DNA from: Octopus vulgaris | Taxonomy: Eukaryota | Assembly (NCBI GenBank): GCA_951406725.2 | Contig: OX597815.1 | Coordinates: forward strand, 35,836,001 to 35,900,000 | DNA length: 64,000 bases | Direction: 5' to 3' | Shown here: positions 1,374 to 41,665 of the stretch, piece after piece | Numbering within the stretch: position 1 is the first letter of the stretch | How the letters are laid out: every line of letters begins with the position of its first letter | Notes under the pieces: model-generated | Database searches by the model: none | What the model was told of the DNA's origin: nothing | What the model saw: the letters and a program-made list of their open reading frames with translations, nothing else | Made by a program: the position numbers and the translations under genes

Positions 1374-1510
1374 ATCTGAGTAAATGTGAACAGAGAATCA
1401 CACAAGATTTAATGGCCAGTGCATTATGTAAGTCAGAATCAGAATTAAAGCATCACTGTGAAGAGTGGGATAATTCAATTGTCAAGTTGAACCCTCATAT
1501 GCAAGAAATG
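1374..1510 (+). CDS. BIN3: BIN3 copy A exon 5
   Basis: tttcacag|ATCTGAGT...GAAATG|gtaagt, 137 nt. Confidence 0.9.
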
Positions 1511-4500
1511 GTAAGTAATCTCTTATTATAAAAGGCAGATTTTATCTGCCACCCTTTGTATCTTATAGAAATCTACAATATAGGATTTCTTCAATTACAA
1601 TTTACCTAGCATTTTTAAGAGTAGAATGCATCGGGTCGTGCCAGGTCCAGTTTTTAAAATTTCAACCCCAATTAAGCAAAATTTAGAGAAAACTCACATT
1701 GTGGTGTCTAAATCAAATGCTTCTCTTAGTGTGGCCTACACCACACGCACACGCACGCACACAGTGTGCAACGAATAAAGTGAAAGTAATTCACTTTTTG
1801 TAGTGAGTGACTCTTTCATTCTGCCACTTCCTCTTTACACACATAGACACGCAAATATATAAATAAAATTGTAAGCTAACGTGTGTGTGTGCGTGTGTGT
1901 GTAAGTGTGTGTGTGAGGGTGCGTGTGTGTGTGTGTGTGTGTGTGTGCGTGTGCGTGAGTGTGTGACAGGAAAGTTTTTTAGGACGAATATAAGACCTAT
2001 ATCCAAGTAGCAGAAAGATCGCCCAAAAGTGTATATAGATATTTAAATGTATTTATATATTCATCTATACACAGATGTATGTATAATGTGTGTGTATATA
2101 TTTCCATAGAGGTAACCTTTCACTCCATACAAAGTTTTTTAGGACGAATATAAGATCTAAAGTATATACAAGTAGCAGAAAGATCGCCCAAAAGTGTATA
2201 TAGATATTTAAATGTATTTATATATTCATCTATACACAGATGTATGTATAATGTGTGTGTATATATTTCCATACACGTAACCATTCACTCCGCACAAAGT
2301 TTTTTAGGACGAAAATAAGATCTAAAGTTATCTCTAAGTAGCACAAAGATCGCCCAAAAGTGTATATAGATATATAAATGTATTTATATATTCATCTATG
2401 CACACATGTATGTATAACGTGTGTGTATATATTTCCATAGAGGTAACCATTCACTCCATACAAAGTTTTTTAGGACGAAAATAAGATCTAAAGTTATCTC
2501 TAATAAACAGAAAGATCGCCCAAAAGTGTATATAGATATTTAAATGTATTTATATATTCATCTATACACACATGTATGTATAATGTGCGTGTATATATTT
2601 CCATAGAGGTAACCATTCAATCCATACAAAGTTTTTTAGGACGAAAATATTTATATATAAAAGAAAGGTTGTGTGTCTGTCTACTCCGATTTAGATTCCT
2701 AACTACTCCCACATTTTGCGATGCAGTTTAACCAAAACCGGGTATCTTATAGTCGTGATTCATATCGAGCCCTTCTGGGTATTAGCGCGCGTCTACGATG
2801 AGTCTATGATTTTACAAATAATTTACCATCATTTTTTTCCATTTTAATGCATATTTTTTTAAATAAACGGAAGTAACTCTCAAACTTCACACCAATATGC
2901 ATGCTCATATGCGACGTAATATCACATCAGCAGCATTTCCTCACACCCTCATTGCACTTGGCGAAGGAAAAATACCAGGGGATGAAAATGGTAATATTGC
3001 CATCGATTCCATTTGTACCATTGTTAAGATGCCTTCTGATCTCAGAGATGCAGTGTTCCCAGATCTACAAGCTAATTATCAGAATATAGATTGGATTGGC
3101 AAAAAGGCTATACTGGCCCCGAGGAATAAAACTGTTCACCATATTAATGATGAAATGCTAAAACTCATTCCTGGGGAAGTCTATGTATATCAGTCTATCG
3201 ATACAACTCCTGACCCAGAGGACGTCATCAACTATCCAATAGAGGTACTCAATTCCTTTGAGCACCCCGGACTACCACCACACTTTCTCAAACTTAAAGT
3301 TGGTGCCCCTATAATGCTCATCAGAAATTTGGTTCCCCCAAAACAATGCAATGGCACACGTTTGATCGTTAAGTTCTTATCTCCCACCGTAAACTTATAT
3401 CAATATTTGCCTGAATAATCATCATAATTCAGTGCAATCATTAACAGTACTTTCAAGCAATTCAGCCCCAAGCAACGCTGGGCAATTTTGCTAGTTAATT
3501 AATATTTGAATAATTATGATGAATAAAAATGAAACTTGTTTGAGATTAAAGAACATGAGAAAATGATTTTAACTAGAACAATTAATACAAATTCTGTTGT
3601 GTCTGGGGAAAGTCATTCTCTTTTAGTGCCTTATAATTTAACACACTCACGGGTAAAATTTCCGCTTATGTCTTTTTTATTTTTCTAAAGGATCTTGCAA
3701 ACCAAATCCCAAAACAAAACTAATACAAGCCTTCTCTGTTTGGATATCAGTGAGGATAATTTTTTTTTTAGTATATTAAGGTGCTGAGGATTTTCTCAAA
3801 CAGACTCCTGTATTTAGAGGTACATATTTGATATGTCAAGGAAATGAAGCCATTATGCTGAGTTCTTTATCAATGACCAATTCAAATTATTATTCATCTC
3901 TATAGACAATGCCCCATTCTTCTAAACTACATCCAAGATTAGATTTTTCCTTCAGCATTAAAAATTACTTCAACCTTGAACAACCTTTCAAATCGTAAAT
4001 ATCTTTTACTCTAGATGACATTAAAAAATATCTAAGATTCTTCAGTCACAAAAACTAAAACCATTGTCTTTATTTAGATTTGCTTTAGGGTTGATGAATT
4101 AAGTATCCGTAGAACTCTGGGGTCAAGGTAATCAACTAACCCCTTCCCTAAAAAAAGTTCAGGCCTTGTACTTTTAGTAAAAAAAATTATTTCTACTTTT
4201 ACTAGCAGTCATCTCACTTCCTAAATTTGGGTGTACCAAAGCTGACTATAAGAAATGTCACTCCTGTTTAACTTAAATAATTCCTTGAAGAAAACATAAA
4301 AATAAGTTACGCTTCATGATTGTATGGTTGATATTCAAAGTAGTTATATCCAGATATAAAATGACTAACCTTAGTATTTCATAAAATATCTGTATTTTCA
4401 AAACCTTGTTACTCATACAGCCACAGGAAATGTAATTCAGAACTGTAAAGTCCTACTACAATTGTTTTTATGATCTCTGTAAAGAAATTGTTGGGAATTT

Positions 4501-7500
4501 TTTCTTTTCATTTTTTAATCATAAGTTTGTTGTTACTTAGTACAATTTAAAGTATTGTTAAGAGTTTTACATGGGGATAGGGTTTTTGTCTGTCCCATTT
4601 CTCTGGTTGAATTTTAACAATTAAGTACAGCACAGTTACACAATACTCTCTGTACTCCTGCTACTTACAGTGGTAAACTGTAACTCTGTTGTGACCATAG
4701 ATGAGGAAGTGAACCAGTGGTTAATAGTGCTTATGTCCCCTCTTGTCCTTTCTATTCCACATGTATATGAGAGAGAGACAGAGAGGGGGGGGGGCAAGCT
4801 CCTTTCAGTTTCTGTCTAGTAGATCCATTCACAAAGCTTTGGTGACCCAAGTTTATCGAAGACACTTACTCAAGATGCCCTCTAGTGAGACTGAACTGAA
4901 AACCATGCGATTAGGAAGCAACTAATTTGCTATGCAGTGTAATCGAACTCAGAACCATGTAGTTACAAATTGTTCTTCTTAACCACAAATCCTTGCTTGT
5001 AGTCAGCAGTTAGTTTACTGTCAAGAAGTGAGGTTGGCACTTTGGGACAGAACCTTTTATTAGAGAGTGAAACGTTAGTAGATTATATATGACAGAAAGA
5101 GCAAAAGAGAGAAAGCATTGATTGCTTCTGTTCAGAGAGTGAATTTGTATCTTTATGCAACCACATTTGTTAAATCATGCCATTCAATAAATAATGCATT
5201 TGAAAAAATATGGACTTGAATATTTCAACTTGTATCATTTTTTTTTTCTTTTGTAAAATACTTTCTTTTTTTTTTTACATTCTGATAGAATTCCAACATC
5301 CAAAAGATGCTGGTGGAACCCATTGAAAAGTAAATGCATTTTCTTCAACTTGTCTATTATTGTAAATCTGATGTTCCTGGCATTTGTTAATATTTGTTTC
5401 TGTTGATGTTGTATTTTAATATTGGCACAAGGCTACATACATAAAAGGTGTGTGTGTGTGTATTAATGTGTACTGTGCATTTCAGGTCACAAGGCCAGCT
5501 TTGGTAGATGAGTACAGTTTTTCATGCTGGTGTTTTTTTTAGTCAAAAAATTATACAGTAGCTTCTCTGCAAGTATATACAGACGCTTTCCTTATCACTA
5601 CTTTATTGATATCTTGTAAAGTTGATGTATTTTGGGGATGCTTTTCGTGCTAAGAATATAAACTTCTTTTGCTTAGATAGAGAATTTTGTAGTTGATCGT
5701 ATCAACTATAATAAAATCTTACTGATATTTGTGTTAAGAACTCTGGAGATATCAAACTTAATACATGTTAGTAATGCCAAATTCACCTGATTTTACTGAA
5801 GGTGGTTGAATGAAAACTATTTCCTCTTGTAAGATGCATTGCTGTTTCTTATACAGTAATAAGTCTCAACTTGTGGGTTACAATATAACCCTGAATATGT
5901 TGCAAAGTTTTTTGAAATATTTCATAAATATTTTAAATCATTTGATTTTGCTTTTGAAATATTTTATAAAACATTAAATGTTCGGTAATTTATTATTAAC
6001 AAACCAACACAACATTGACTGCAAATGGAATCAAAAATATTTCCTCAACAAAGATATTAAATAAGTTTATTCAATTTTTGGAAAAATTATATATATATTT
6101 TTTTCATTTAAATATTTTAAAATGATTACAGAATTATTTACTGAAATGAGTCACAATAATGAAAGATTGACAACCCCTGTTTTATACTATGAAGATCACT
6201 ACTTAGAAGTTAAGATTCTGAACAACATAAGTTCAACCACTGAGCTTGTTGTACTTTTCCAACTAACAAAAACAAGTTCCACATGCACTAAATGATTCAG
6301 TGGTTAAATGATAGAAAAATCATCTGTTTTGAAAAGTAATCATTTAAACAGTGTGCTTTATTTTGTTTTTGTTTTTCTTGAACATTTTTCATTTATTTTT
6401 TTCTATAAAATTTCAGAAGTGAGAGGTCAAGTTTTTACTTATATTCAACATTAAAATGAATTCATTTTATTGAAAAATACGTCACATTAAAATTTTGTTG
6501 CTTCCGTAATATTAATAATACTGTTTCTTGTCACTACAGGTTTAGTAATATATTCCCCTGTATTCATGAGACTAAGAAAAAGTGGGAACAATCTTCCGGG
6601 GTTTGTACTGTTATTTACCTATCTTTTTATGCTTTATTCCAGGGGTCAGGGAACTTTTTTAACCAATTACCCCAAAATATATTTACGCCGACATTACCCA
6701 CTTAATTTGGAAGGAAGAAAATCATAGTCTTTGAATTCAAAAGGTTTTTTGAATCTATTTATTTGGAGAATTCAATTATAAATATGAAAAGTATAAAACA
6801 AATGCAATAGAATTAATTAATATCCTCATTGTGAAACAAGGATTTTTCTGGAGACTGTTTCACTTCATGTTTTGGAGAAATGATATTATATTTTTGTTAC
6901 AACTACATCAAAATTGGGTTATTTTGATGCCAGAGTAGTTTGGTTATAGTCTTTGGGGTCCAGTTAATTATTCTGCTTTGTTTTTATGTTCTTTAGAGTG
7001 TAAAATCCTTGTTTGCAACAAGATTGTTGCAAAAGCAGCAACTTTTTGACTGCCTCCTCGTGCCAGGAGAAAAATATCCTTCATAACAAGGCGCATGTTT
7101 TTTCATATCATTTTACTTATGTCTAATGAGTCCTCATTACCACCAAGAATTTCATTTTTACCCCACAGAGTAATTTACCCTGGTTACCGACTCCTGCTTT
7201 ATTCTATTTAGAATCTCCCTGATTCTAAATACTTATCTGGAGAAAAATATATATCATAAAGGAACTTTTTAAAACACAAAAATGTCTCACATTTAGAAGC
7301 CTAAACCCCAATTGGTTACATCACATCAATGTCTTACTGATTAAAACATCAATAGCTTCTGGAATTTGGTTAAATTAGGAAAAAGAGGAATCTGATGTTT
7401 CAACACTGTCTCGTTGTCTGAGAAAGAAAATGAAAAATTTTTTCAAATGACAGTTTCTAGATTTCAGATTCTTCTTCTTCCTTCCTCATAAACTTAGCAA

Positions 7501-7662
7501 AACTCACAAAGTTCACTGTATATTTTTTACCAACTCATAGATGTGGACATGGCAGTGTGATAAAATGTTTGCTTCCCAAACACATGGTTTCAGGCTCAAT
7601 CCCTTTGCATGACACCTTGGGCAAATGTGAATAGATTTGATAGAAAGAAATTGAAAGAAGCC

Positions 7663-7711
<49 letters not shown>

Positions 7712-10700
7712 TTAATCCAAACGGGAAAACAGAAAAAAACAACAACACGTGGAACAATTACAGTATTATTATTATTAGGCGCTCAGGAAAATGGAAGAAG
7801 GAGGGTATGACGTTTCGAGCGGAGCTCTTCGTCGGAAACATAGGAGAAAGAAAGATCCCGAGACGGGAGGACAGAGGAAAAAAAATTGCAGGTAGTCTTC
7901 ACGAGGTCACATGCATATATATATATATATATATGCATGTGTTTATGTTACTGTCTCCTTGCCTTGACTTTGTATGATTATTGGGCTTATTTTAGTTTCC
8001 ATCAACCAAATTCACTCACAAGGCTTTGGTCAGCTCAGTACTATAATAGAAAACACTCACCCATGGTGCCACACAGTTGGACTGAACCCAAAACCATGTG
8101 ATTGGGAAGCAAACTTCTCAACCACAACCATACTTGTGCCTATTCAAGATTAGGATTATATTTTCACTAATTTTGTCCAGAGGGCTGTGGCTACACTAGG
8201 CCATTGGTTGAAGTAATCTCCAATCATCTGTGAACTTTGTTCTTTATATCTAAACCCCATTATCAATGATTTTCACTGATTAATGATTCTGTTTGCTTCA
8301 GGAATTCAAAAGATGTGAAGTTAAGGTCAAAAAGTACCAAGAACGTGAACGTACTGGAAACAATATTGTTAAGCTAAATCAGGTATTGTTCACTTGTTAT
8401 CTTTGCAATGTTTTTATTATAATCTCCACCAAATCTTTACGTAATTGACAAAAATGTTAATCTTGAAGAAAATACTTTGCAGCTTGTTTCAATGCTTTAT
8501 GTTGTGAGTTCATGTCACACCAATGTTCATTTTGCTTTCCATCTTTCCAGAGTTGATAAAATAAAGTTCTTGTCTAGAGTGATAGACTAACTGAATTGTT
8601 AGTGTTGAGCAAAATACCTTGTGGTATTTGTTCTGGACCATCATGTTCCAAGTGCCCAGGCAGGTGTGGTCAACTTCTTTGTAGCTTGTATTTTATAAAA
8701 AATATCTGAAGAAAGGTAACAGCAAACTGTCTTCCTATTCTCTCATGATAATTCCATATGAAACACATAACTTATCAAGGAAAACACCATGTGTCATTCA
8801 TTAACCTGATAGCAGAAGGAAGGATCTAGTCAATATATCTGAAATACAGCAAGTATCTCAACTCAGCAGTGGTTTCAAATATTCTCAGCCCTAACTGCAT
8901 TTTCTCCCATATGTTCAATACTGTTAAAAACATACGAACAAATGGTATAAACTTGTGTTTATCACAGTTTATCCTATATTTGTTCCCTGTATATCATAAG
9001 TAGTAATACTTATTTCTTTACAACCCACAAGGGGCTAAACACAGAAGGGACAAACAAGGACAGACAAATGGATTAAGTCGATTATACCGACCCCAGTGCG
9101 TACCTGGTACTTATTTAATCGACCCCAAAAGGATGAAAGGCAAAGTCAACCTCGGCGGAATTTGAACTCAGAACGTAGCGGCAGACGAAATACCGCTAAG
9201 CATTTCGCCCGGCATGCTAATAATAATACTATTAAATATAGCAATGACTAAAAAACTATACTGGAAGAAGACTGGATGATGATAATCTACGTGGAGCTCT
9301 AAACTCAACAGTAGCAATCATACATCCATTTGCGTGTGCTCACATGCACACACACACACACACACACTGAGCTTCTTTCAGTTTCTGTCAACTAAATTCA
9401 CTCACAAGGTTCTGGTTGGCCTGAGGTTGTAGCAGAAGACTCCTGTACCACACAATGATACTGAACCTGAGACCACACATTTAGGGAACAAGCTTCTTAA
9501 TCACACTGCCATGCCTACAAAAAATAAGACTTTCGGTTGAAGAGCCCATTTGTCATAGAATTAATAAACTGCATATGAATCTAACATAGCTTCCTTCTGT
9601 TTCTCTTACTGTTACCTTTGTTTCCCTGTTGAACTAACAGATTCCACTCTGATCTATGGTTGAAAGGATATCTGTTTACTTTAGTCTCCCTATTGAACTA
9701 ACAGATTCCACTCTGATCTATGGTTGAAAGAATATCTCTTTACTTTAGTCTCCCTATTGAACTAACAGATTCCACTCTACTTCATTGGTGGGTGAATAGC
9801 TGTGAGAATTTATCTATATATGCAATAGTGTACAAAGTCTACACTTTCAAAACTATTATTCTCATGTCAGCATAAGAAAATGGATAAAAGATAGAAGATA
9901 TTGTTTAGAAAGCCATTGGACTCTGAACCTCAGGAGAGGTAAAAGATTTCAAATCTACATTTGGGTTGTTTGTTTAGTCCCTGACAGCTGTGATCAAGCA
10001 AACATATGATTCAAAGGCTTTCTGTCTTATTTTCATGTATGGTTTATCCACCACTACATTATCGAGTATGTCTTTTCTTCTTGCAAGACAGAAGCTGATT
10101 TCAAGGACCTTTTAAGTGCTATATCTAGCCAGATCACCTGGCAACTAGTCTTAAGCTAGTGTTCATCAGTGATGTTAACAAACATCAATTGTACCTTAAT
10201 CAAAGATACTATAATGAAATAGAAGGTTTAGATACCTGTGGAATATCTCATTCTCCCATTATAATTGTTTCGTAGTTCAAGGAGCTGGAATGGGTCGCCG
10301 ATTTGTGACGTCCATATGAAGTGAGGTGATGAGAATGGCTCCTCAGTACATCACACAGTTGGTACAATAAATATAAATAGAACAATGCATATATGTGCCA
10401 GAGGTAAATAAGAGACACAACCGGGTAGTATGTTTAAGGGAAGATTTATTGGTATGTTAACATGTGTAATCATATATGCGTCATATATACAGAATAATAG
10501 ACAGGCCATCATAAGAATAAGATGTATGCGTGTGTATGTAGGCTTAGATGTATGCACGTTAAGAACATACAAGGATGGCAATGAAGAAGAGACAGTGAAA
10601 GAGTCTATAGCCATTGAAGTGAGGACTAAGTTCATAGACACAAGGATGATAAACACCAGTTTGTGTAGTCAATTGTACATGATAGTTGAAATACTGTATC

Positions 10701-13700
10701 AATAAGTTGCGGCAATGATGCAGAGCCGGTTGTGGTACATGTCGTACATGAAGTTGTGGCTGTGGTGCTGCTGCCAAGCTCACTTGGTACAAGAGTTCTC
10801 ACAAGATGTACATTCACTGTTGATCCATGGTGAAGCAGTTCATGAACAGTGCAGTGTTGTAACTTGGGTGTGTACTTAGAGAGATGTTGACGTTAGGACA
10901 AATGGTGGTGATGGGGATGGAGGTCACTGAATGCTGTTGGATGAAGTTGATGAGTCTCCACGTGGCTGCTGTTGTGTTGTCACTGGAACTGGTGGTGTCT
11001 TGTGTGGTCAGTGGCTAAACCTTAAAAGGTCTGGAACCAGATGACATCGAGACAAAAAAAGTGAGGTTTTTTACAAGGAGTTGTAGGCTCAGCTGAGGTA
11101 GAAAACAGGCTGTCACATGTGATCTTATTTGAAGGCTGTGATTGGTTGGTTTGCATATTGACACGTGAAAGAGCAAGAGATGAATTGCACCAATACCAAC
11201 CAATCAGAGTAGTGGACACAACAGGGTCCAAAATGCAGCCAAAGGCTTGCTGTTATCTACTATGTTCGTATGTATGTATATATAATAGAAAGGAGAGGAA
11301 TTTCACTCAAGTGTACGCTACTATACCAATTTCTTTTTTATCTTTATACACTCTGTATATACTGGGTCATCCTGTAAATAATGCGATTTTTATGCTTCTT
11401 TTATTTTTCAAAATTAAGATAAACAAAGTTCTTTTTTAATCTAAAATAAACTCCTTCATTTTCTACAATGCTCTTCCATCTATCTGGTTGACTTGCAAGA
11501 CCCTCTTCCAAAATTTACTTGTCCGTGATGAAAAATACTCTTCCAGTAGACCTCATCTACAGAATTCATATTTTTCCTATCCAAATAATTTTGAAGACTA
11601 CAGAATAAATGATAATCAGACAGGGCAATGTCTGGCAAATATGGTAGGTGAAGCATCATTTCAAACTGCTCCAGCCTTTGAAAAGTCATCCTTCTGTATG
11701 TGGCCAAGCATTATTCTGATGGAAGAACACCTTTTGTCTTGAAACCAAAAATTGTCATTTTTCTTCTAACGCTGACTTAAGCCGCTCAAGCTGCTTATGA
11801 TAGATCTCCTTTGTTATCGTTTGGTTTGGGTTTAAAAGTTCAAAGTGGACTAAACCTTTGTAGGATTGTTATCTATCTATGTGTGATATCTGCACTTGTT
11901 GGGTGCTTCACACATTTCCCTACAATGTTGTAGAAAGGAATGAAATGGCAGGAACATGAATCTCTGAACAAATAACAATGATAGTTTATTTTTTCACCGA
12001 AGGAGATATTTCATCGCTGGACATCGGAAGCGTGAAAACCAGGGATAGGAAACAGCAGAGTTGGATTAAATCTCCATGGTTGAAACAGTCTTCACCACCC
12101 ACCACGTCTGGTTCACCTCCGCTCGGAGCCTTGCCGAGTCATATCTTAATTTGTCGACCGCCAAGAGCCAAGAGATCGAATAGCGAGAAAAGCTAACTGC
12201 TGCTGATTACTGTGCATGCGCATAAGGGGACTTCTGGCAGGCCTACCGGAAGACACCAAACATTGCACATGGCATCTAAAACCTGGCGTCACTACACCTT
12301 TCATATCCCACCAAACAGATAACATTACCTTACATAGGTGAAGGCCTTCTTTAACTTGGGGTGCCGTTGTTTCTCCTTTACCTACCCACTGTCTTTGGTG
12401 CTTGACATTTTTATAGAGAACCTATTTCTCATCAGCAGTTACTATTAGGGTCCAAAAAAGGTACATTCGTGAAAAGAGCACACATTCACTCTTTGTGTGC
12501 AATTAGACTTGGAAAGTTTGTGATGAACCCATTGACCCAATTTTCTGACTTTTCCAATGGCACGCAGGTGTTGATGACCAAATCCAAGCTTCTGCACTAG
12601 TTCTTCAACAGTTATAATGGGATTTTGTTCCACCAGGGTTTACAGGACGCCATTGTCAAGCTCTACAGATCTTCCAGGAGAAGGCTTGTCTTCTAGACTG
12701 TAGTTTCCAGCTGGGAATTTCTGGAACCACCGTTGACACTGGTTTACACTTATTGTCCGATCCCCATATACTGCATTAATATTCCTCACACTTTCCATTG
12801 CATTGTTGCCTTTATTGAACTCATAGAGCAAAACATATCAAATATGCTCCTTTCTCACTTTCATTATAGCTTTGAAAAAAATAACTGTTAAAATTGAACT
12901 GCACTCTTCAAAACCTGCACTAAGAATAAGTACAAAGTAAAATTACTACCTGCTTTTATAGCAAGTCGATGCAGGTAGTTGATCCCATCTACCTCTGACG
13001 ATGCAGGTAGTTGATCCCATCTACCTCTGACTTTTAGTTCATGCAATTGCAAAAAACTGTATTATTTATGCGATGACCCAATACTTTGTCTTTTAAACAA
13101 GTGATTATTCTGGTTTTTTTTTGGTTTTTTTTTTGTTCTTTTTTTTATGTTAAATTCTATCAGCACCAGAAATCCTTGATGCCAGTCAAAGAAGAGTTCA
13201 ATAAACTACACACAGCCTTAAAGGAAGGTATACCTAAACTAAATGATCACCGAATTAGTTACTATCAACCATGTATTGAAGCATTAATCAAATCTCAGGT
13301 TGGTTTCATATTATGAGATTTTAACACACACACACACACACTTGTACCCATGTTTGTGCTTTTCTATACTTGAATGGGTCAGATGAGAGATGTTGAGACT
13401 ATTTTTTAGTGCTGGATGCCCTTCCTCTCAACAACACTCACATGTTTCTGAACAAAGTAATATTTCCCCATGGTCAGACATGTTTTCACAGAAAAGTAAT
13501 TGTATGACAGTGATAATGCTTTACGACTAACAAACATACATACATGCACATGCACGCGTGCACACACACACAAACATACATAATGGGCTTCTTTCAATTT
13601 CCTCCTATTACACCCTCTCACAAAGCTTTAATCATCCAAGGCTATTATATGAATCACTTGCCTAAGGTGCCGAACTATATGATTGGGAAGCAAATGTCTT

Positions 13701-18751: not shown

Positions 18752-18759
18752 ATGAGCAA
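18752..18759 (+). CDS. BIN3: BIN3 copy B exon 1 coding part (ATGAGCAA)
   Basis: ATG AGC AA|gtaaat; the phase-2 end fits the 49-nt exon 2; promoter-like motifs lie just upstream. Short, so less certain. Confidence 0.65.
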
Positions 18760-30700: not shown

Positions 30701-33700
30701 AGACAGCTTCAAGTGAGTATTTATAATATTTTACATTTATGCCTTGCATCCAATATTAGGAATAGTTAAATTGATGAATTTTTCTATTACTCATGCTAGC
30801 ATGGAAAACGGATGTTAAACGATGATGATGATGTGTTTATAGTTTGTTAGGCAGGTAGGGGAACAATGTCTATTATCATCAGCATTATGGCAGTGAATTG
30901 GCTGAATGAACATAATCATCATCATTTAATGTCCATGTTACATGCTGGCATAGGCTGGACAGTTTGACAGGATCTGATTGTTCCAAGGACTGCTCTGAGC
31001 TCTACTGTCTGATCTGGTGTGGTTTCTATGGCTGGATGCCCTTCTTAATACCAACCACTTGACAGTTTGTATTGAGATCTTTTCTCATGCTACCAGCACT
31101 AGTGAGGTCACCATGTAGCATGCAAGACTATGAACCCCAAATGGTAGGGTTCAACTTTATGCTAAGGGTTGAAGGATGAAAGTATGAAAGTATGAGAGGA
31201 GGAGGTGGTGAACAGAGCAGTTCCTTGTTGTGGAGTAGCTACATGGCTACTCATATTTAGAAGAGAGGGTGAGAATGATCAGTAAGCATTCTGAAAAGAG
31301 ATAAATAGTGGTGATGAGGTATCCATGAAGAACATGAGGGTATGAAATAAGTTAAAGTGAGTGAGGGCAGATGAACTAGGAGTGTGAGTGTGAATTTGCC
31401 AGAGTGCATGACAGATCAAGGGCTGGAGGAATGGGAGAGGAGGGGAGATGGACAACAACTGTAAAGATTGTATATAGTTGAAGGATAGATGTAGGGCATT
31501 ATAGACAAGTGGTGGTGCATGACAAATGATGCATGAGTTGGGGAAGATAGAGGAATGCAGAAGAGACTGGAGGGTGGGGAAAGAATTGCCAAGCAGTAAT
31601 GATGATACAGTTGACAGGGAGAGAAGAAGAGGCAGGAATAGTGAATGAGGAGAGATAATTGGGTCCAGTGGCGATGGGGATGAATCAGTGTAATGTGTGA
31701 ATAGAGAGAATATTAATGGATGAAGAATGGCTAACAGGTGAAATGGTTCGGCTGGCAAACACGATTGTTTACAGTATGGAGTTACTGTTCTTTACGTTCT
31801 AAATTCAAATGCTACAAGGGTCAACTTTGCGTTTTCTCCTTCCTGAATAAGTACTAATCAAATATCTGGGTCAGTATCCTTGTTATATATCCTGCTCTGT
31901 AATTTGAGACCAGAGAAATCATTATCACTATTATCAAGAATAATGTAGCTTCTTTTCCATGCAACTTTCTTATTAAACTAGTTTTTTTTTAGTTTTTTTA
32001 AGCCTTACAATATGTTTCTGTTTCACAGGTCTGAGTAAATGTGAACGGAGAATCACACAAGATTTAATGGCCAGTACATTATGTAAATCAGAATCAAAAT
32101 TAATGCATCACTGTGAAGAGTGGGATAATTCAATTGTTAAGTTGAACCTTCATATGCAAGAAATGGTAAGTAATTAATTAACATTTGAATTATTATGATC
32201 TAAAGAACATGAGATTAAAGAACATGACAAAACGATTTTAACTAGAACAATTAACGCAAACCTTCCCTGTTTGGGTATCAGTGAGGATGATACTTTTTTT
32301 AGCATATTACGGTTGTTGAGAATTTACTCAAACAGACTCCTGTATTTAGATGTACGTATTTGATATGTCAAGGAAATGAAGCCATTAAGCGGAGTCCCTC
32401 ATCAATGACCAATTCAAATTATTATTCATCTCTATAGACAATGCCCCATTCTTCTAAACTACATCCAAGATTAGATTTTTCCTTCAGCATTAAAAATTAC
32501 TTCAACCTTGAACAACTTTTCAAATCGTAAATATCTTTTACTCTAGATGACATTAAAAAATATCTAAGATTCTTCAGTCACAAAAACTAAAACCATTGTC
32601 TTTATTTACATTTGCTTTAGGGTTGATGAAATAAGTATCCGTAGAACACTGGGGTCAAGGTAATCAACAAACCCCTTCCCTAAAAAAAGTTCAGGCCTTG
32701 TACTTTTAGTAAAAAAAATTATTTCTACTTTTACTGGCAGTCATCTCACTTCCTAAATTTGGGTGTACCAAAGCTGACTATAAGAAATGTCACTCCTGTT
32801 TAACTTAACAAATAACTCCTTGAAGAAAACATAAAAATAAGTCACGCTTCATGATTGTATGGTTGACATTCAAAATAGATATATCCAGATATAAAATGAT
32901 TAACCTTAGTATTTCATAAAATATGTGTATTTTCAAAACCTTGTTACTCATACAGCCACAGGAAATGTAATTCAGAACTGTAAAGTCCTAAAAACAATTG
33001 TTTTTATGATCTCTGTAAAGAAATTGTTGGGATTTTTTACGTTTCTTTTCTAATCATAAGTTTAGTATTACTTAGTACAATTTAAAGTGTTGTTAAGAGT
33101 TTTACATGGGAATAGTTTGTCTGACTTATTTCTATGGTTGACAGCTATGCACAGCACAGTTACACAATACTCTCTGTACTCCTGTTACTTATAGTGGTAA
33201 ACTGTAACTCTATTGTGACCTTAGATGAGGATGTGAATCAGTTGTTAATAGTGCTTTGTTTAGTGATACAGCACAGTATCTGTAATATGAGAAATTGTTG
33301 CCTAACACATGCCAGTATGGAAAACAGATGTTAAATGATGATGATGCCAGCCTTTCAGATAGTAAAACAGTAGAATTTAAGCAAGCCTATGAATATGTAT
33401 CGGTAAATAGTAGATATCAGTATTCCATAAAGTGAAACTAGTTGAAAGCCAGAAAAGGGTGTTGTGATGAGAGTTACAATGCCCACCTTGAGCATAATCC
33501 TATGAACCCCGAAAAAATTAAAACAGAGGGTTACCTACTTGCAAACAAATGTGGTAACATGTAACATTATTGACTGAGGTTACCGTGGTCTTTTCCGTAG
33601 GCTTTTCTTCCCACGGATAAACCTTATCTGCTTCCCCCTTTACACTTTACATCATTACACTGTGATACACGATCCCTATTGATCGTTTTTTTTTCTTTTC

Positions 33701-36700
33701 CCTTTTACGATCCCTTTTGGTCGAAAACCTATCCCACCTTTTTTTTTTCTCTCCCCAAAAAAAGAAAAGCTCTACTTTGTAATCTGTCTCATCTGTGTGC
33801 AGCCCTGTGTGGCTAATAAAGAAACACATTTGTCTATGTATCTATCTATCTGTCTATGTATGTATCTATCTATCTATCTACCTATCTATCTACTTCTTTT
33901 AGTCATTGAACTGCAGACCTGCTGGGTCATGTTGAACTCCTTGAAGGATTTAGTTGAACAAATTGACCCCAGTACTTATTTTTAAGCCTGGTACTTATTC
34001 TAGAAGTCTCTTTGGCTGGATCACTAAACAACAGGGGATGTAAACAAACCAACACTGGGCGTCAAGCAGTGATAAGGGACAAACACATAGATATGCATAC
34101 ATATATGTATGTGTGTATGTATATATTCTTATATCTGGGGATGGTCATCATTTGCCAGTTAAACACACACACTTTTTATTTGATCTTCACTTTAGCCTTA
34201 TTATTATTAGTAGTAGTTTATTTGTTGGAGTTCTTTCATCGTGCATTCTGTGACCACTTCAGTGACTTTCTTTTCCTCATGTCATCTCTTGTCCTGTCTA
34301 TTCCACGTGTGCGCGTGTGTGTGTGTGTGTGTGGCAAGCTCCTTTCAGTTCCTGTCTAATAGATCCACTCACAAATCTTTGGTGACCCATGGCTGTTGAA
34401 GACACTTACCTAATTAGGAAGCAACTTCTTACCACACAGCCATGCTGCAATAGGCTCTGCACAATTTCAGTGAAGAAATTCCACTCACAAATTATTGGTT
34501 AACCTAAGACTATGGATTAATCCATAACCTTAGGTTGACCAGTAATTTGCTATACAACATGATCAAACTCAGAACCATGTAGTTGCAAATTGTTCTTAAC
34601 CACATATGCTTGCTTGTGGTCAGTAGTTAGTTTACTGTCAAGAAGAAGTGAAGTTGGCACTTTGGGACAGAACCCTTCATTAGAGAGTGAAACATTATTA
34701 GTAAATTACATATATGACAGAAAGAGCAAAAGAGAAAAAGCATTGATTGCTTCTGTTCAGAGAGTGAATTTATATCTCTATGCAACCACATTTGTTAAAT
34801 CATGCCATTCAATAAATAAATGATGCATTTGAAAAAATATGGACTTCAATATTTCAAAATTTTTTCTTTTGTAAAATTCTTTAATTTCTTTTTTTTTACA
34901 TTGATAGAATTCCAACATCCAAAAGACACTGGTGGAACCCGTCAAAAAGTAAATATATTTTCTTCAACTTGTCTATTATTGTAAATCTGATGTTTCTGGT
35001 ATTTGTTAATGTTGAATTTTAATATTGGCACAAGGCCACATACAAAAACAGGTGTGTGTGTGTGTGTGTGTGTGTTAATGTGTACTGTGCATTTCAGTCT
35101 CAAGGCTAGCTTTGCTATTTGAGTACAGTCTTTGATGCTGGTTTTTTTAGTGGAAAAAAAAAAGTGGCTTCTCTGCAAGTATATACAGTAGTTTTGTCTA
35201 TCACTAGCTTATTAATATCTTGTTAAGTTGATGTATTTTGGGGATACTTTTCGTGCTATCTTTTGCCTAGATAGAGCATTTTGTAGTTGAGAGTATCAAC
35301 TATAATATTGGGTTGTCCAGAAAGTTCATGTCGATTTTTAAAGGAAAGAAAAAGGTCAATAATAACTTGCCATTACATTTTTTAATCAACCAAATATGAA
35401 CCGTTTTGTTGCACAATGCATCTCCATCTTTCCTTTAACTTCAAAATACCCTCTTCCCAGAATTGAGGTGGTTTCATGACAAAGAATTCATCAAGGTATC
35501 TTTTTACATCATCCAAGGAATTGAAATTTTTACCATTAAGACTATTCTGCAGAGACCTGAATAAGTGGAAATCCGAAGGAGCAATATCTGGTGAATATGG
35601 ATGGTGGGGTAGCACATCCCAGCCGAGCTGCAGCAATTTTTGTCTGGTTCCCGAAGCATCAAGTGCCAAAAATGAACTTTCTTATCTTCCATTTTAAAGG
35701 ATTTCAGAACTAACACAGGTTATAGGAACATAAACCTTTTTCCACGAAAAGATAGCTTAAACTGTGCTCTAAATGGTGTAGTCAAATCCTATTTTATGGA
35801 CTCAACCATGTTATAAAATAAGTCAAAAGGTAAGCTAATATAAATCAGCACGAACTTTCCGGACAACTCAATAAAATCTTAGTGGTATTTGTGTTAACTC
35901 TGGAGATATCAAACTTAATACATGTTAGTAATGCCAAATTCACCTGATTTTACTGAAGGTGGTTGAATGAAAACTATTTCCTCTTGTAAGATGCATTGCT
36001 GTTTCTTATACAGTAATAAGTCTCAACTTGTGGGTTACAATATAACCCGGAATATGTTGCAAAGTTTTTTTGAAATATTTTATAAAACATTAAATGTTTA
36101 GGAGTGGCTGTGTGGTAAGTAGCTTGCTAACCAACCACATGGTTCCGGATTCAGTCCCACTGCGTGGCATCTTGGGCAAGTGTCTTCTGCTATAGTCCCA
36201 GGCCGACCAATGCCTTGTGAGTGGATTTGGTAGACGGAAACTGAAAGAAGCCTGTCGTATATATGTATATATATATGTATGTGTTTGTGTGTCTGTGTTT
36301 GTCCCCTTAGCATTGCTTGACAACCGATGCTGGTGTGTTTACATCCCCGTCACTTAGCGGTTCGGCAAAAGAGACCAATAAAATAAGTACTGGGCTTACA
36401 AAGAATAAGTCCCGGGGTCGATTTGCTCAACTAAAGGCGGTGCTCCAGCATGGCCACAGTCAAATGACTGAAACAAGTAAAAGAGTAATACTATTGATAA
36501 ATGATAGGCATAAGAGCTACAGTACAACATTCACTGCAAATGAAAACAAGAATATTTCCTCTGCAAAAATATTAAATGTTAATTTTATTTGATTCTTGGA
36601 AAATTATATTTTTTTTATTTGAATATTTAAAAACAACCATACAGAATTGGGTCACGATGATGAAAGATTGACAACACCTGTTGTATACTACATAGATCAC

Positions 36701-38176
36701 TACTTAAAAGTTAAGATTCTGGACGACATAAGTTCAACCACTGAGCTTGTTGCACTTTTCCAACTAAGCAAAAACAAATTCCACATGGACTAAATGCACA
36801 GTGGTTAAATGATAGAAAATCATCTGATTTGTGGATTTGGTAGACGGAAACTGAAAGAAGCCCGTCGTGTATATATATATATATATATATATATATGCGT
36901 GTGTGTGTTTGTGTGTCTGTGTTTATCTCCTAGCATTGCTTGACAACCGATGCTGGTGTGTTTATGTCCCCGTTACTTAGCGGTTCGGCAAAATAGACCG
37001 ATAGAATAAGTACTGGACTTACAAAAGAATAAGTCCCGGGGTCGAGTTGCTCGATTAAAGGCGGTGCTCCAGCATGGCCGCAGTCAAATGACTAAAACAA
37101 GTAAAAGAGATTTAAACAGTGTGCTTTATTTTGTTTTTGTTTTTCTTGAACATTTTTTACATATATTTTCTCAATAAAATTTCAGAAGCGAGACGTCGGG
37201 TTTTTAGTTATATTCAACATTAAAATCAGGCATGTGCCATCAGTAATTACTCGAGTATGCAGTTGGTGACCTTTATGTAGCTAAACGCACAAAGAATAAG
37301 CAAAACACATATGCACACCTGAGTTGAAGGCAGATTTACTTTTACTTTTGTAGCATATAAAGAAAACAGTGTTGTAGGAGTGTACGCAGCATGTATACTA
37401 CAGCAGTACTATGTGTAGCTTAAATACTGAGATTGAAAAGCAGGGGCAAATTATCTACAAGAAAATAAAATATTTTGCATTTTATGTATAGTGATGTATA
37501 GTAATTTTCATAATTGCCTACCTAGGTAGCTCATCCCTGGTTAAAATGAATTTATTTTATTGAAAAATATTACATTAAAATTTTGTTGCATCAGTAATAT
37601 CAATACAACTGCTTGTTGTCATTACAGGTTTAGTAGTATATTCCCCAGTCTTCATGCAGCTGAAAAAAAGCGGGAACAAGCTTTGGAGGTTTGTACTGTA
37701 CTGTTATTTATTTTTATATGCTTTATTCTGTTTAGAATCTCTTTGAATCTAAATACTTACCTGGAGAAGGAGATGTATCATAAAGTAACTGATAGCATAT
37801 TTTTGAAACACTAAAATTTCTTACATTCAGAAGCCTAAAACTCAGTTGGTTATGTCGTATCAATGTCTTACTGATTAAAACATCAATAGCTTCTGGAATT
37901 TGGTTAAATTAGGAAGAAGAGGAATCTGATGTTTCAACACTATCTCATTGTCTGCGAAAGAAAATGATAGTTTCTAGACTTCAAATTCTTCTTTACCCCA
38001 CCCTTCCTTATAAACTTAGCAAAACTTATAAATTTCACTGTATATTTTTTACCAACTTATAGATGTGGATGTGGGAAAATTTTTGCTTCCCAACCACATG
38101 GGTTCAGGTTCAATCCCTTTGCATGACACCTTGGGCAAATGTGAATAGATTTGGTAGAAAGAAACTGAAAGAAGTT

Positions 38177-38241
<65 letters not shown>

Positions 38242-40993
38242 TGTGTATGTGTTACTGTCTCCTTGCTTTGACTTCATATGATTGTTAGGATTCTTTCAGA
38301 TTCCATCAACCAAATTCACTTGCAAGACTTTGGTCAGCCCAGCTGACCAATGGTGTCACACAGTTGGACTGAACCCAAAACCATGTGATTGGGAAGCAAA
38401 CTTCTCAACCACAACCATACTTGTGCCTATTCAAGATTAGAATTATATTTTCACTAATTTTGTCCAGAGGGCTGTGGCTACACTAGGCCATTGGTTGAAG
38501 TAATCTCTTATCATCTGTGAACTTTGTTCTTTATATCTAAATCCCATTATCAATGATTTCACTGATTAATGATTCTGTTTGCTTCAGGAATACAAAAGGT
38601 GTGAAGCTAAGGTCAAAAAGTACCAAGAACGTGAACGTACTGGAAACAATATTGTTAAGCTAAATCAGGTATTGTTCACTTGTTATCTTTGCAATGTTTT
38701 TATTATAATTACCACCATATCTTTACGTAATTGACAAAAATGACAAAATTGTTAATCTTGAAGAAAATACTTTGCAGCTTGTTTCAATGCTTTATGTTGT
38801 GAGTTCATGTCACACCAATGTTAATTTTGCTTTCCATCTTTCCAGAGTTGATAAAATAAAGTACTTGTCTTGAGTGGTAGGTTAACTGAATTGTTAGTGT
38901 TGAGCAAAATACCTTGTGGTATTTGTTCTGGATCATTATGTTCCAAGTGCTCAGGCAGGTGTGATCAACTTGTTTGTAGCTTGCATTTTATAAAAAAATA
39001 TCTGAAGAAAGGTAACAGCAAACAGTCTTCCTATTCTCTCATGATAATTCCATGAATGATACATGGTGTTTTATCAAGGAAAACACCATGTGTCATTCTG
39101 CTAAAGGCACCTACCTCTAACCCAGGGACTGAGGGTAAGACCATCTGGTTTCTTTCGATCACTTCTGGGTAATCCCGCTGGCTCCAGAACTGAGGGAATA
39201 TTAATCCAAGCCAAGGCCCGCTTAACGATTAGGCTTAGCTTGGTGTGACCTTCTAGTAGAAGGAAGGATCTAGTTAATATATCTGAAATACAGCAAGTAT
39301 CTCGACTCAGCAGTGGTTTCAAATATTCACAGCCCTAACCTCATTTTCTCCTATATGTTCAATACTGTTAAAAACATACGAACAAATGGTATAAACTTGT
39401 GTTTATCACAGTTTATCCTACATATACTCCCTGTATATCATAAGTAGTAATACTATTAAATATAGTAGCAACTAAACCACTATACTGGAAGAAGACTGGA
39501 TGATGATAATCTACATGGAGCTCTAAACTCAACAGTAGGAATTATACATCCATTTGCACACACACTGGGCATCTTTCAGTTTCTGTCAACTAAATTCACT
39601 CACAAGGTTCTGGTTGGCCTGAGGGTATAGCAGAAGACTCTTGTTCCACACAATGGTACTGAATCAGGGACCACACATTTAAGGAGCAAGCTTCTTAATC
39701 ACACTGTCATACCTGCAAAAAATAACACTTTCGGTTGAAGAGTCCATTTGTCATAGAGTTAATAAACTGCATATGAATCTTACATAGCTTCCTTCTGTTT
39801 CTGTTAAATATTTCTCTCTCACTGTTACCTTTGTTTCTCTGTTGAACTAACAGATTCCACTCTGATCTATGGTTGAAAGAATATCTGTTTACTTTAGTCT
39901 CCCTATTGAACTAACAGATTCCATTCTACTTCATTGGTGGGAGAATAGCTGTAAGAATTTATCTATATAAACAATAGTGTACAAAGTCTACACTTTCAAA
40001 ACTATTCCTTTTATGTCAGCATAAGAAAATGGATAAAAGATAGAAAAAAAATATTGTTTAGAAAGCTATTGGACTCTGAACCTCAGGAGAGGTAAAAGAT
40101 TTCAAATCTACATTTGGGTTGTTTGTTTAGTCCCTGACAGCTGTGATCAAGCAAACATATGATTCAAAGGCTTTCTGTCTTATTTTCATGTATGGTTTAT
40201 CCACCACTACATTATCCAGCGTGTCTTTTCTTCTTGCAAGACAGAAGCTGATTTCAAGGACCTTTTAAGTGCTATATCTAGCCAGATTACCTAGCAACTA
40301 GTCTTAAGCTAGTGTTCATCAATTATGTTAACAAACATCAATTGTACCTTAATCAAAGATGCCAATTTCTTTTTATCTTTATACACTCTGTATGTACTTT
40401 GTCTTTTAAATGAGTGATTATTTTGTGTTCTTTTGTTTGTTTGTTTTTTTGTAAAATTCTATCAGAGCCAGAAATCCTTGACGCCAGCCAAAGAAGAGTT
40501 CTATGAACTACACACAATCTTAATGGAAGATATGCCTAAACTATATGATCTCCGAATTAGTTACTATCAACCATGTATTGAAGCATTAATCAAATCTCAG
40601 GTTGGTTTCATACTTTATAAGATTTTACACACATGCATACGCACGCACGCGCGTACACACACACACACACTATTGTATCCTAGCAACCAAGATTTTTTTC
40701 TTATTTGGTGAGGCTGGAGTCAAGTAATGCAATTCGAAGTCAAGTTATTTGTACCTCATTGTTGTCATTATAACATTGAATTTTCTGTACTTGCATCAGT
40801 CAGATGAGAGATTTTGGGGCAGTTTTTTAGAGCTACATGACCTTCCTCTCAACAATCCCCACATGTTTCCAAGCAAGGTAATATTTCTCCATGTTCAGAC
40901 ATGTTTTCACGGTAAAGTAATTGAATAGCATTGCTTGTGTGACAGTGATAATTCTTTACAGCTATCATCTAATCCCAAGACTAGGAGAAGCAA

Positions 40994-41037
<44 letters not shown>

Positions 41038-41665
41038 GTGTATATACACAATGGTCTTCTTTCAGCTCCCTCATATTACAACCTCTCACAAAACTTTAAT
41101 CATCCAAGGTTATTGCATGAATCACTTGCCTGTAGTGCCATGCAGTGGGACTGAACCCAGAACCATATGATTGGAAAGCAAACGTTTTAACCACACTGCC
41201 ATCATCATCATTTAATGTCCATTTTCTATGCTGGCATGGGTTGAATGGTTTGACTGAAATTGGTAAGCTCTAGGGCTATACCAGGTTCCAGTCTGATCTA
41301 CAGCTGGATGTCCTTCCTAATGCCAACCATTCCAACAGTGTAGTGGGTGCTTTTTATGTGCCAATGGCTTGGGTACTAGTCTCCTTAGTCGTGATTGGGT
41401 AAAGAAGTGAGTACTGATGTTATAAGAAGTGGAGGATATTTAATTAGGATAAATCTGTCATTGCTTAAAGAAATCAATAATGAAGGTTTTAATCATTGAC
41501 TTTTTTTTTCTTTTTTCTTTACAGGTTGCCTACAACTCTGAATGTTACAAAATCTATAGTGAGTTAGCTGGTCATCTTGCTCCAGAGACATACACTAGTG
41601 AAGAATATGGCAACAGAATACAACAGAAACTTTCAGATATAAAGACATTGTCCATAGTTGACTGA
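18752..41665 (+). CDS. BIN3: BIN3 (bridging integrator 3, N-BAR domain), copy B, complete, 10 coding exons, 251 aa
   Basis: Exons 18752-18759, 25536-25584, 26824-26864, 30651-30712, 32029-32165, 34908-34948, 37628-37688, 38588-38668, 40466-40600, 41525-41665 total 756 nt and read MSKIFKQLSTPKRNVTLWNEEKEFEKEGKKLEELEETCRKLYKDSKKCSETASSLSKCERRITQDLMASTLCKSESKLMHHCEEWDNSIVKLNLHMQEMNSNIQKTLVEPVKKFSSIFPSLHAAEKKREQALEEYKRCEAKVKKYQERERTGNNIVKLNQSQKSLTPAKEEFYELHTILMEDMPKLYDLRISYYQPCIEALIKSQVAYNSECYKIYSELAGHLAPETYTSEEYGNRIQQKLSDIKTLSIVD*. Colinear with vertebrate BIN3 as I recall it (IQKTVIEPLKKFGSVFPSL..KRREQALQDY; MPRFY..R.DYFQP; LSIV). Confidence 0.92.
20446..21164 (-). mobile_element. Multimeric SINE family B (one head plus about 4 tandem body units)
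   Basis: Head GGCGGCGAGCTGG..; repeated GCCTTTCATCCTTTCGGGGTCGATAAA..GTACCAG core; ~19-bp TSD ttcgtgtaataagc(g/a)tatt at 20427-20445 and 21165-21183. Confidence 0.82.
21388..22259. mobile_element. Foldback/MITE-like element with ~65-bp terminal inverted repeats
   Basis: attctatgaatcatatataa..tttggttagattaaaaaag.aaataaaa at the left end and its reverse complement at the right end; internal AACCCT-like repeats at 21901-21940. Confidence 0.7.
22645..24185 (+). mobile_element. RTE-clade LINE, 5'-truncated, degenerate
   Basis: RT motifs (VAVHQGSVLIPLMFI, ELLYTD, GLRVNLAKTKV, VDSFHYLGD, GWAKFKELLPLL, SETWA); Cys-rich insert; 3'UTR shared with many short copies. Confidence 0.88.
25536..25584 (+). 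CDS. BIN3: BIN3 copy B exon 2
   Basis: tacag|AATATT...TGGAAT|gtaagt, 49 nt. Confidence 0.8.
26824..26864 (+). CDS. BIN3: BIN3 copy B exon 3
   Basis: polyT-cag|GAAGAA...GAAGA|gtgagt, EEKEFEKEGKKLEE. Confidence 0.88.
27770..28110 (+). mobile_element. Old tRNA-derived SINE
   Basis: A-box/B-box-like head (TGGCTGAATGG ... GTTTGATTCC) followed by TCTTGAGCAAGACACTT core. Confidence 0.6.
28330..29420 (+). mobile_element. piggyBac transposase pseudogene (PGBD4-like)
   Basis: DISTDESLWKFKWRLKFKQYNPIK, KIYTG, IHMDN.FSSP, NACGTV, YNHTMGGV, C-terminal Cys/His remnant; stops and frameshifts. Confidence 0.88.
29745..30490. mobile_element. Solo LTR
   Basis: TGTAAC...ACTACA with 4-bp TSD GATT (29741-29744, 30491-30494). 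Confidence 0.75.
30651..30712 (+). CDS. BIN3: BIN3 copy B exon 4
   Basis: ttcag|ACTTGAG...TTCAA|gtgagt, LEETCRKLYKDSKKCSETAS. Confidence 0.9.
32029..32165 (+). CDS. BIN3: BIN3 copy B exon 5
   Basis: cacag|GTCTG...GAAATG|gtaagt, 137 nt. Confidence 0.92.
33832..33892. repeat. (TATC/TATG)n microsatellite
   Basis: Direct reading; many other (TA)n, (CA)n and (CT)n tracts, e.g. 1880-1965, 7668-7709, 38181-38238, 40999-41036, 48318-48365. Confidence 0.9.
34908..34948 (+). CDS. BIN3: BIN3 copy B exon 6
   Basis: gatag|AATTCC...AAAAA|gtaaat, NSNIQKTLVEPVKK. Confidence 0.9.
35308..35871 (-). mobile_element. Internally deleted mariner (copy B only)
   Basis: TIRs TTG(G/A)GTTGTCC(A/G)GAAAGTTC; TA TSD; HPYSPDIAPSDFHLFRSLQN; empty site ctataataaaatc at ~5706. 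Confidence 0.93.
36100..36488 (+). mobile_element. tRNA-derived SINE family A, full length (copy B only)
   Basis: GGAGTGGCTGTGTGGTAAG..TTCAGTCCC..CTTGGGCAAGTGTC, internal (TA)/(TG) tract, 3' GAAACAAGTAAAAGAG. Confidence 0.85.
36828..37110 (+). mobile_element. SINE family A, 5'-truncated (copy B only)
   Basis: Matches the 3' two thirds of 36100-36488. Confidence 0.82.
37227..37539. mobile_element. hAT-type MITE (copy B only)
   Basis: CAGGCATGTGC...GCTCATCCCTG; 8-bp TSD attaaaat/gttaaaat; single attaaaat in copy A. Confidence 0.75.
37628..37688 (+). CDS. BIN3: BIN3 copy B exon 7
   Basis: tacag|GTTTAG...TTGGAG|gtttgt, FSSIFPSLHAAEKKREQALE. Confidence 0.92.
38588..38668 (+). CDS. BIN3: BIN3 copy B exon 8
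   Basis: ttcag|GAATAC...AATCAG|gtattg. Confidence 0.92.
39099..39350 (-). mobile_element. CRE/NeSL-type non-LTR retrotransposon restriction-like endonuclease fragment
   Basis: IVKRALAWINIPSVLEPAGLPRSDRKKPDGLTLSPWVRGRCL ((R/K)PD motif); mostly deleted in copy A near 8800. Confidence 0.75.
40466..40600 (+). CDS. BIN3: BIN3 copy B exon 9
   Basis: atcag|AGCCAG...TCTCAG|gttggt; within ORF 40433..40711. Confidence 0.92.
41525..41665 (+). CDS. BIN3: BIN3 copy B exon 10 (stop TGA)
   Basis: tacag|GTTGCC...GTTGACTGA; within ORF 41480..41665; candidate AATAAA 42327-42332. Confidence 0.92.
   Translation, partial: VAYNSECYKIYSELAGHLAPETYTSEEYGNRIQQKLSDIKTLSIVD

Follow-up and report, generated by a model that had tools for sequence, protein, structure and literature searches.

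A tandem BIN3 pair in Octopus vulgaris: a conserved copy and an intact, spliced, divergent paralog

Gene structure and splicing of the two copies

We analysed a 64-kb window of the Octopus vulgaris genome (GenBank assembly GCA_951406725.2, contig OX597815.1; G000:C2:35836001-35900000), to which 120 kb upstream and 60 kb downstream were added. The window contains two same-strand tandem genes for bridging integrator 3 (BIN3), here termed copy A and copy B. Copy A is a real, intact duplicate that is spliced over exons 5-8, and it carries nearly all of the amino-acid replacements that separate the two proteins. Self-BLAST revealed a colinear direct repeat (window 230-15566 against 30885-42631) interrupted by copy-specific insertions. 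The repeat reaches about 8.4 kb upstream of the window, the duplicated unit measures about 24 kb, and the 244 kb around the locus contain no N gap. Each copy has ten exons of equal lengths (8, 49, 41, 62, 137, 41, 61, 81, 135 and 141 nt), GT-AG boundaries at 9/9 introns and a frame of 251 amino acids (aa). The features are listed below, in window coordinates unless the contig is named.

1..15566, +, copy A duplicated unit, in-window part; starts about 8.4 kb upstream of the window
G000:C2 35828676-83, +, copy A exon 1, coding; GT-AG
G000:C2 35829371-419, +, copy A exon 2; GT-AG
G000:C2 35833023-63, +, copy A exon 3; GT-AG
G000:C2 35835108-169, +, copy A exon 4; GT-AG
1374..1510, +, copy A exon 5; 137 nt, 8 differences from B; spliced joint to exon 6
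5289..5329, +, copy A exon 6; 41 nt, 5 differences (T106M, V111I, K112E); spliced joints
6540..6600, +, copy A exon 7; 61 nt, 13 differences (A123E, R128W, L132S, E133G); spliced joints
8302..8382, +, copy A exon 8; 81 nt, 3 differences, tip loop 141-160 identical; spliced joint
13164..13298, +, copy A exon 9; 135 nt, 13 differences, every one a replacement
14566..14706, +, copy A exon 10, coding and stop; 141 nt, 8 differences, 4 of them silent
18058..42631, +, copy B duplicated unit (conserved BIN3); from self-comparison
18752..18759, +, copy B exon 1, coding, start codon; N-terminus agrees with P0005
22257..22283, +, copy B optional 27-nt exon (isoform X1 of P0001/P0003); donor AT, not GT; absent from A
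25536..25584, +, copy B exon 2
26824..26864, +, copy B exon 3
30651..30712, +, copy B exon 4
32029..32165, +, copy B exon 5
34908..34948, +, copy B exon 6
37628..37688, +, copy B exon 7
38588..38668, +, copy B exon 8
40466..40600, +, copy B exon 9
41525..41665, +, copy B exon 10, coding and stop

All 18 splice sites of copy A were intact, with zero stops and zero frameshifts in its open 251-aa frame, as the initial annotation had claimed for the part that it covered. Exons 1-4 were recovered upstream of the window (G000:C2 35828676-35835169), and these intact exons rule out a pseudogene that lacks them. Across the whole coding sequence (CDS), 72/756 nt differed between the copies, giving 52 amino-acid differences (79% protein identity) and codon classes of 52 replacement, 9 silent-only and 11 multi-hit. 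For exons 5-10 (596 nt), our recount returned exactly the numbers first reported: 50 nucleotide differences, 36 replacement codons and 7 silent-only codons. Neither exon 9 nor the full-length B protein, used as queries against the genome, brought up a BIN3 copy beyond A and B; a third copy or retrocopy was found neither among the 36/36 genome candidates scored nor in the 244 kb around the locus. Large gene-conversion tracts were likewise not found, the longest A/B-identical runs being about 150 nt.

Sequencing runs were then considered. Twenty matching runs were listed, none of them on record as RNA and 17/20 guessed to be RNA. Contigs of four runs (X1, X3, X9 and X20) were aligned to window 1000-13400 at 90% likeness. 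The results showed GT-AG joints precisely at copy A introns 5, 6 and 7 in 3/3 RNA-like runs (X1, X3 and X9, from three studies) and in 0/1 presumed DNA run (X20). Transcripts of B are 88% identical to A over exon 6 and 79% over exon 7, below the alignment threshold, so the joints flanking exon 7 cannot come from B. Run X9 also yielded a piece of exon 9 that departs from A at 13 letters, exactly the number by which A and B differ there; because A-type joints and this B-type piece occur together, both copies appear in that run. The spliced-contig evidence covers exons 5-8, the exon 8-9 joint not being among the rows shown, and the protein product of copy A is putative. A transcript-less pseudogene, which the initial annotation had weighed, does not agree with these joints. 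In runs X11-X17 the small share was 0.11-0.18, near the 0.11-0.12 expected from B alone, and gives no evidence on tissue range.

Descent and rate of evolution

The protein of copy B was identical to P0005, on record as O. sinensis BIN3 isoform X2, and that of copy A to P0008, on record as O. vulgaris BIN3-like; NCBI already carries both gene models under 'bridging integrator 3' or '-like'. The best Atlas match of copy A was the BIN3 family (0.95), and its 251 aa, ending at the stop in exon 10, contain no other Pfam domain, which makes it a BAR-only protein without SH3. In the tree, A was placed with octopus B inside cephalopod BIN3 (support 100/98). Identity to chicken BIN3 was 35% for B and 30% for A. 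The initial annotation had B matching human BIN3 at about 15 of the differing sites and A at about 2; at the differing sites of exons 5-10, the chicken BIN3 model (P0063) gave B 14 and A 3, near that ratio, on the chicken sequence and not on the human one itself.

Both types also occur in two other species. O. sinensis has an A-type protein (P0014) that differs from A at 3/248 aa, with a different predicted N-terminus and an open frame. O. bimaculoides has a B protein and a diverged second copy (P0002/P0006/P0007), which has K6R, K43E, T106M, V111I, A123E and R128W in common with A, plus the ancestral S131. Between O. vulgaris and O. bimaculoides, 63/242 aa differed for A and 3/248 for B, so that over one and the same species comparison A has changed about 20 times as fast as B. 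In a 13-protein tree the three A proteins were grouped (support 91/92, not starred), and an O. bimaculoides A+B clade was rejected by the approximately unbiased (AU) test (p = 0.042). Decapodiforms yielded one BIN3 cluster, and a second copy was not found there in searches of limited sensitivity. The duplication, which we dated relative to the O. bimaculoides split only, probably predates that split on the sequences compared; independent duplications in the two lineages are the less likely course. According to the available sections of PMC10700109, O. vulgaris split from O. bimaculoides 34 million years ago and from O. sinensis 2.5 million years ago, and its heterozygosity is 1.22%. The introns of A and B differed at 561/8249 aligned columns (6.8%). 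Because this exceeds that heterozygosity and both types are on record in O. sinensis and O. bimaculoides, A and B are not alleles, a possibility that had been raised at the outset. The suggestion that A might be a young, relaxed duplicate is unsupported for this lineage, an A-like copy being present in O. bimaculoides. That second copy lacks the first six residues of exon 6, as from a downstream in-frame acceptor, and is four residues longer at the C-terminus; it may be in decay, or its model may be wrong.

Replacements were polarised with O. bimaculoides and three decapodiform proteins. The results revealed 38 differences on A outright and 11 more at which both B proteins have B's state, giving 49/52 on A and 3 on B. 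The pairwise ratio of nonsynonymous to synonymous rates (dN/dS, Nei-Gojobori method, NG86) was 0.97 at kappa 1 and 1.39 at kappa 3.5, with 95% intervals that include 1. The earlier estimate of about 1 or slightly above, not proven to exceed 1, thus holds for the pair; it understates the signal, because the pairwise value averages two branches and nearly all replacements lie on A.

An intron clock was polarised with other genomic copies of repeats lying in the introns of both genes. Among 111 intron differences with enough votes, 41 fell on A, 50 on B and 20 were unclear (41:50, p = 0.40). The clock (Kimura two-parameter distance, K80, 0.072) predicts 14 silent exon changes and 15 were seen; because these agree, the introns have not been selectively homogenised. 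About 19 replacements would be expected on A under neutrality, against about 53 steps seen. The A branch had dN/dS 3.2 (95% 2.1-4.6) on the intron clock, 2.3 (1.5-3.5) when only the 39 single-hit codons were used, and 2.9 (1.6-5.5) on the exon silent clock; the B branch had about 0.2. These branch values were computed on the intron or silent-site clock, not from outgroup codons. The initial annotation had named a branch value indistinguishable from 1 with uniformly spread changes as telling against its reading; the values of about 2-3 and the clustering of changes lean away from this, with a worst case of 1.3. Exon-anchored intron flanks differed at 7.1% for 12/18, the 6 dropped flanks each exceeding 25% and coinciding with insertion breakpoints.

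Two other sources of the replacements were tried and rejected. CpG hypermutation is not the driver, CpG-type changes making up only 5/72 exon differences. Hard-wiring in A of states that B would reach by adenosine-to-inosine (A-to-I) recoding was not supported either: among single-hit replacements A>G numbered 10 vs 2 for T>C, not above opportunity (p = 0.36). Parallel changes at the same sites in the two A lineages, counted at 8 sites, were rejected as well (p = 0.09).

Constraint, predicted fold and surrounding features

We assessed constraint on copy A by simulation and by a family profile. Stops arose from 182/4000 simulated point mutations. The chance that a neutral A would stay intact, counting stops, frameshifts and splice sites, was P = 0.001-0.03 on the intron clock and P <= 0.0003 if all CDS changes were neutral. 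A BIN3 profile was built from 63 non-cephalopod homologs, out of a 71-row alignment holding 56 of 150 listed matches. Copy A scored 281 bits, a value reached by 0/300 random 49-change mutants of B (244+-12 bits), and the result was the same with 55 rows, after the first 16 (mostly molluscs) had been removed. Residues 207-247 carried no replacement on A and 4 silent differences, an unchanged run of 41 residues with P = 0.003. The idea that A selectively lost its basic or its core residues was rejected, neither class being enriched for losses over neutral mutants.

AlphaFold2 (AF2) predicted the same helices in A (predicted local distance difference test, pLDDT, 86) and B (pLDDT 89), including in A the three long kinked helices of the BAR fold; the model of A was built from an alignment of homologs, and its fold is partly inherited from them. 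This model matched amphiphysin with Z 16.8 and a root-mean-square deviation (rmsd) of 2.8 over 209 residues. Surfaces were assigned by homology, the nearest solved structures being amphiphysin/BIN1, with no solved BIN3 structure returned. BAR dimers consist of a core of six helices with two arms, and their concave face is positively charged (PMC3995651, available sections). Taking the arm as the region between the kink prolines P110 and P184, we counted 21 changes of A in 75 arm residues vs 7 in 73 central helix 2/3 residues (p = 0.006, for a split chosen after the data were seen). The tip (141-160) is identical in A and B, with K141, K144, R148 and R150 kept, so the basic tip loop between helices 2 and 3 is present. 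At three positions basic in other homologs (K43 in 62/64, K112 in 64/66, R128 in 61/66), copy A has E, E and W, all three being changed in both A lineages, and copy B keeps the basic residues. Helix 2 of A also has a new proline (L94P). In the N-terminal H0 region, residues 1-16 had pLDDT <50 and residues 1-11 a hydrophobic moment of 1.59 in A vs 1.70 in B; residues 1-14 carry five changes in A, with net charge going from +4 to +2. From descent and predicted fold, copy A is best called a divergent BIN3 paralog that fails two family sequence marks, namely these three basic residues and the Pfam score.

Several observations concern the noncoding parts of the pair. Intron 1 of copy A measures 0.7 kb vs 6.8 kb in B, a loss of about 6 kb that took B's optional exon; a repeat of about 370 bp is inserted just 5' of A exon 1 (G000:C2 about 35828000-35829000), and promoter-side identity of A to B is about 80%, gaps included. 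This 5' remodelling (intron 1 shrinkage and repeat insertion) would fit an altered expression pattern. The 3' flanks (14707-15566 vs 41666-42631) had 2.8% differences over 573 columns, below the 6.8% of introns, which suggests 3' untranslated region (UTR) constraint or conversion. An A-specific insertion in intron 5 (window 1520-3490, +) is probably a Helitron remnant; it contains a 165-bp tandem repeat (1971-2649) as well as a fragment matching Pif1 helicase 2B (E 6e-15). The optional exon of copy B (22257-22283) is isoform X1 in O. sinensis and O. bimaculoides, and here has an AT donor within an otherwise perfect donor context; its GT was either lost in this genome or is made by A-to-I editing. 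A long duplex is predicted to form from the inverted repeat 21388-21452 / 22186-22259 (fold z -8.5), and the acceptor of this exon is situated where that duplex ends; the donor of the exon is paired when the two arms are folded alone and unpaired in the full-region fold. About 29 kb downstream of the window, a CRAL/TRIO (SEC14-like) exon of a neighbouring gene (L019:8663-9082, -, E 5e-26) offers a synteny anchor for comparison with other species.

Competing explanations and known systems

Positive selection of copy A as a functional paralog is probable. The explanation that best fits the results as a whole, and which we hold to be fairly likely, is that an intact, spliced duplicate took 49/52 of the changes, likely under positive selection, and is predicted to have kept the BAR fold and central dimer core with its arms remodelled. 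The initial annotation had left A as either neofunctionalising or relaxed; the asymmetric replacements and the branch ratio of about 2-3 favour neofunctionalisation, an altered function itself being our reading of the pattern.

A mechanism in which the dimer core was kept and the arm altered is possible and decidedly tentative. Early in the history of A, at positions in or next to the surface that faces the membrane, three near-invariant basic residues would have been replaced (K43E, K112E/Q, R128W) and an acidic residue would have appeared (A123E), with the tip basics K141, K144, R148 and R150, K127 and the central helices kept. Copy A would then dimerise through the conserved core with B, itself or amphiphysin, and the resulting dimer would have one arm with lower affinity for acidic lipids or new partner specificity, B presumably retaining the ancestral job. 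By a bolder and unlikely extension, A would be an Octopus-specific BAR subunit in evolutionary conflict (gamete or cell fusion, or a parasite acting on membrane traffic) that keeps the dimer interface, pairs with conserved BIN3 and has the charge of one arm reversed; the A/B scaffold would be asymmetric, its curvature or its specificity for Rho-GTPase partners would be new, and it might be a recent animal counterpart of the yeast Rvs161p-Fus2p heterodimer.

A number of results weigh against selection or against this mechanism. The silent changes are unpolarised, outgroup DNA being needed, and with all 15 placed on A the branch dN/dS falls to 1.3; at the fastest intron's rate the single-hit replacement excess is non-significant (p = 0.25), and inclusion of all 18 exon-anchored flanks (16.8%) would erase the replacement excess as a whole. 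Changed and unchanged sites showed no significant difference in conservation (Mann-Whitney p = 0.26), and losses of A at core, hydrophobic and conserved-basic positions were each at neutral expectation. The Pfam BAR model (PF03114, gathering cut-off 28.5) gave 65.4 bits for B and no match for A at E up to 0.01, with only a weak Arfaptin match (24 bits); O. bimaculoides A is also below Pfam BAR detection and looks more decay-like, having lost 6 aa from helix 2 and scoring on the profile within the range of the neutral mutants. The net charge of A is the same as that of B (+2), and because it is unchanged overall, the sequence is to be read as redistribution of charge, not neutralisation. In the alignment to Drosophila amphiphysin, K43 falls on K58 and A123(E) on K133, residues that we take to face the membrane; a published list of concave-face residues for that protein was not found. 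An O. vulgaris A+B clade was not rejected (AU p = 0.125), and A differs from O. sinensis A at only 3/248 aa, so the fast phase may be finished. The contigs attest the presence of splicing in runs only guessed to be RNA, and their depths cannot rank A against B.

One rival is a relaxed but functional duplicate, kept for dosage or dimer structure, with near-neutral arms and an excess produced by a locally raised mutation rate or a conversion-shortened intron clock. A pairwise dN/dS of 1.0-1.4, the worst-case branch of 1.3 and conserved sites neither enriched nor depleted are all compatible with it. Hints of patchy conversion come from two stretches of about 150 nt without a difference, whose length exceeds expectation (P = 0.0025), and from D149, common to both O. 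bimaculoides copies; intron CpG decay leans to A (19:10). However, relaxation alone cannot lift dN/dS above 1, the exon silent changes match the intron clock (15 vs 14), polarised intron changes are symmetric, and CpG-type differences are few (5/72). We regard this explanation as unlikely, and as the most serious of the alternatives.

Slow decay of a transcribed pseudogene, spared disabling mutations by chance, is improbable. The chance survival of frame and splice sites (P <= 0.03), a profile score above 300/300 neutral mutants, the stretch 207-247 without replacements yet with 4 silent differences and the open frame of O. sinensis P0014 all speak against it, set against the lost Pfam BAR recognition, the lost near-invariant residues, L94P in helix 2, and an O. 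bimaculoides copy with an in-frame deletion and one 5'-truncated model (P0006). An assembly artefact that put two haplotypes of one gene in tandem would look like this same-strand layout, and is extremely improbable given 6.8% intron divergence, many copy-specific insertions, no N gap in 244 kb, annotation of both types in two other species, and A- and B-type pieces in run X9.

The literature searches gave no paper that treats BIN3 together with octopus or 'bridging integrator 3' together with cephalopods, and none on this pair among the papers listed; the pair may appear in gene-family supplements to octopus genome papers. In the twin of a housekeeping membrane-shaping protein about 50 residues were replaced, some of them conserved in animals and other eukaryotes alike. 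Equal in length and exon structure and 79% identical, the two copies are cleanly matched and could be used to test which BAR surfaces determine lipid affinity, curvature and the choice of partner, and to ask what selects on these surfaces in octopus. If the conflict scenario were true, the pair would be a natural experiment on which BAR surfaces fix lipid and partner choice.

Among known systems, copy A is like BIN3 itself (the Rvs161p ortholog, PF03114) in being a BAR-only protein, here of 251 aa, with a predicted BAR fold, and both copies fall within the cephalopod BIN3 clade; A differs in having lost K43, K112 and R128, basic in >90% of homologs, and in lying below the Pfam BAR cut-off. The closest solved structures by profile (E 1.8e-19) and fold (Z 15-17) were the N-BAR domains of amphiphysin/BIN1 (1uru, 2fic, 4atm), in comparison with which copy A has no SH3 or linker. 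Asymmetric divergence after duplication, leading to neofunctionalisation, is the Ohno model and already textbook; the pair conforms to it, with one copy under purifying selection (B, about 0.2) and the other accelerating. Branch ratios of about 2-3 are typical of immune, venom and fertilisation proteins, and a whole-gene value of this size is unusual for an intracellular membrane-shaping protein. Charge changes in the arm and tip of BIN1 impair tubulation (PMC3995651, PMC5039012, available sections). In yeast, Rvs161p forms heterodimers with Rvs167p for endocytosis and with Fus2p for cell fusion, the partner setting the job, and replacement of Lys by Glu on its concave face or tip loop impairs function although the dimers stay intact (PMC4751553, available sections). 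This system, a BIN3-family BAR protein that switches job by dimer partner, is the model for how copy A would act; the yeast partners are ancient, unrelated-looking BAR proteins, whereas the candidate partner of A, in a dimer that is itself a candidate only, is a recent paralog with 79% identity.

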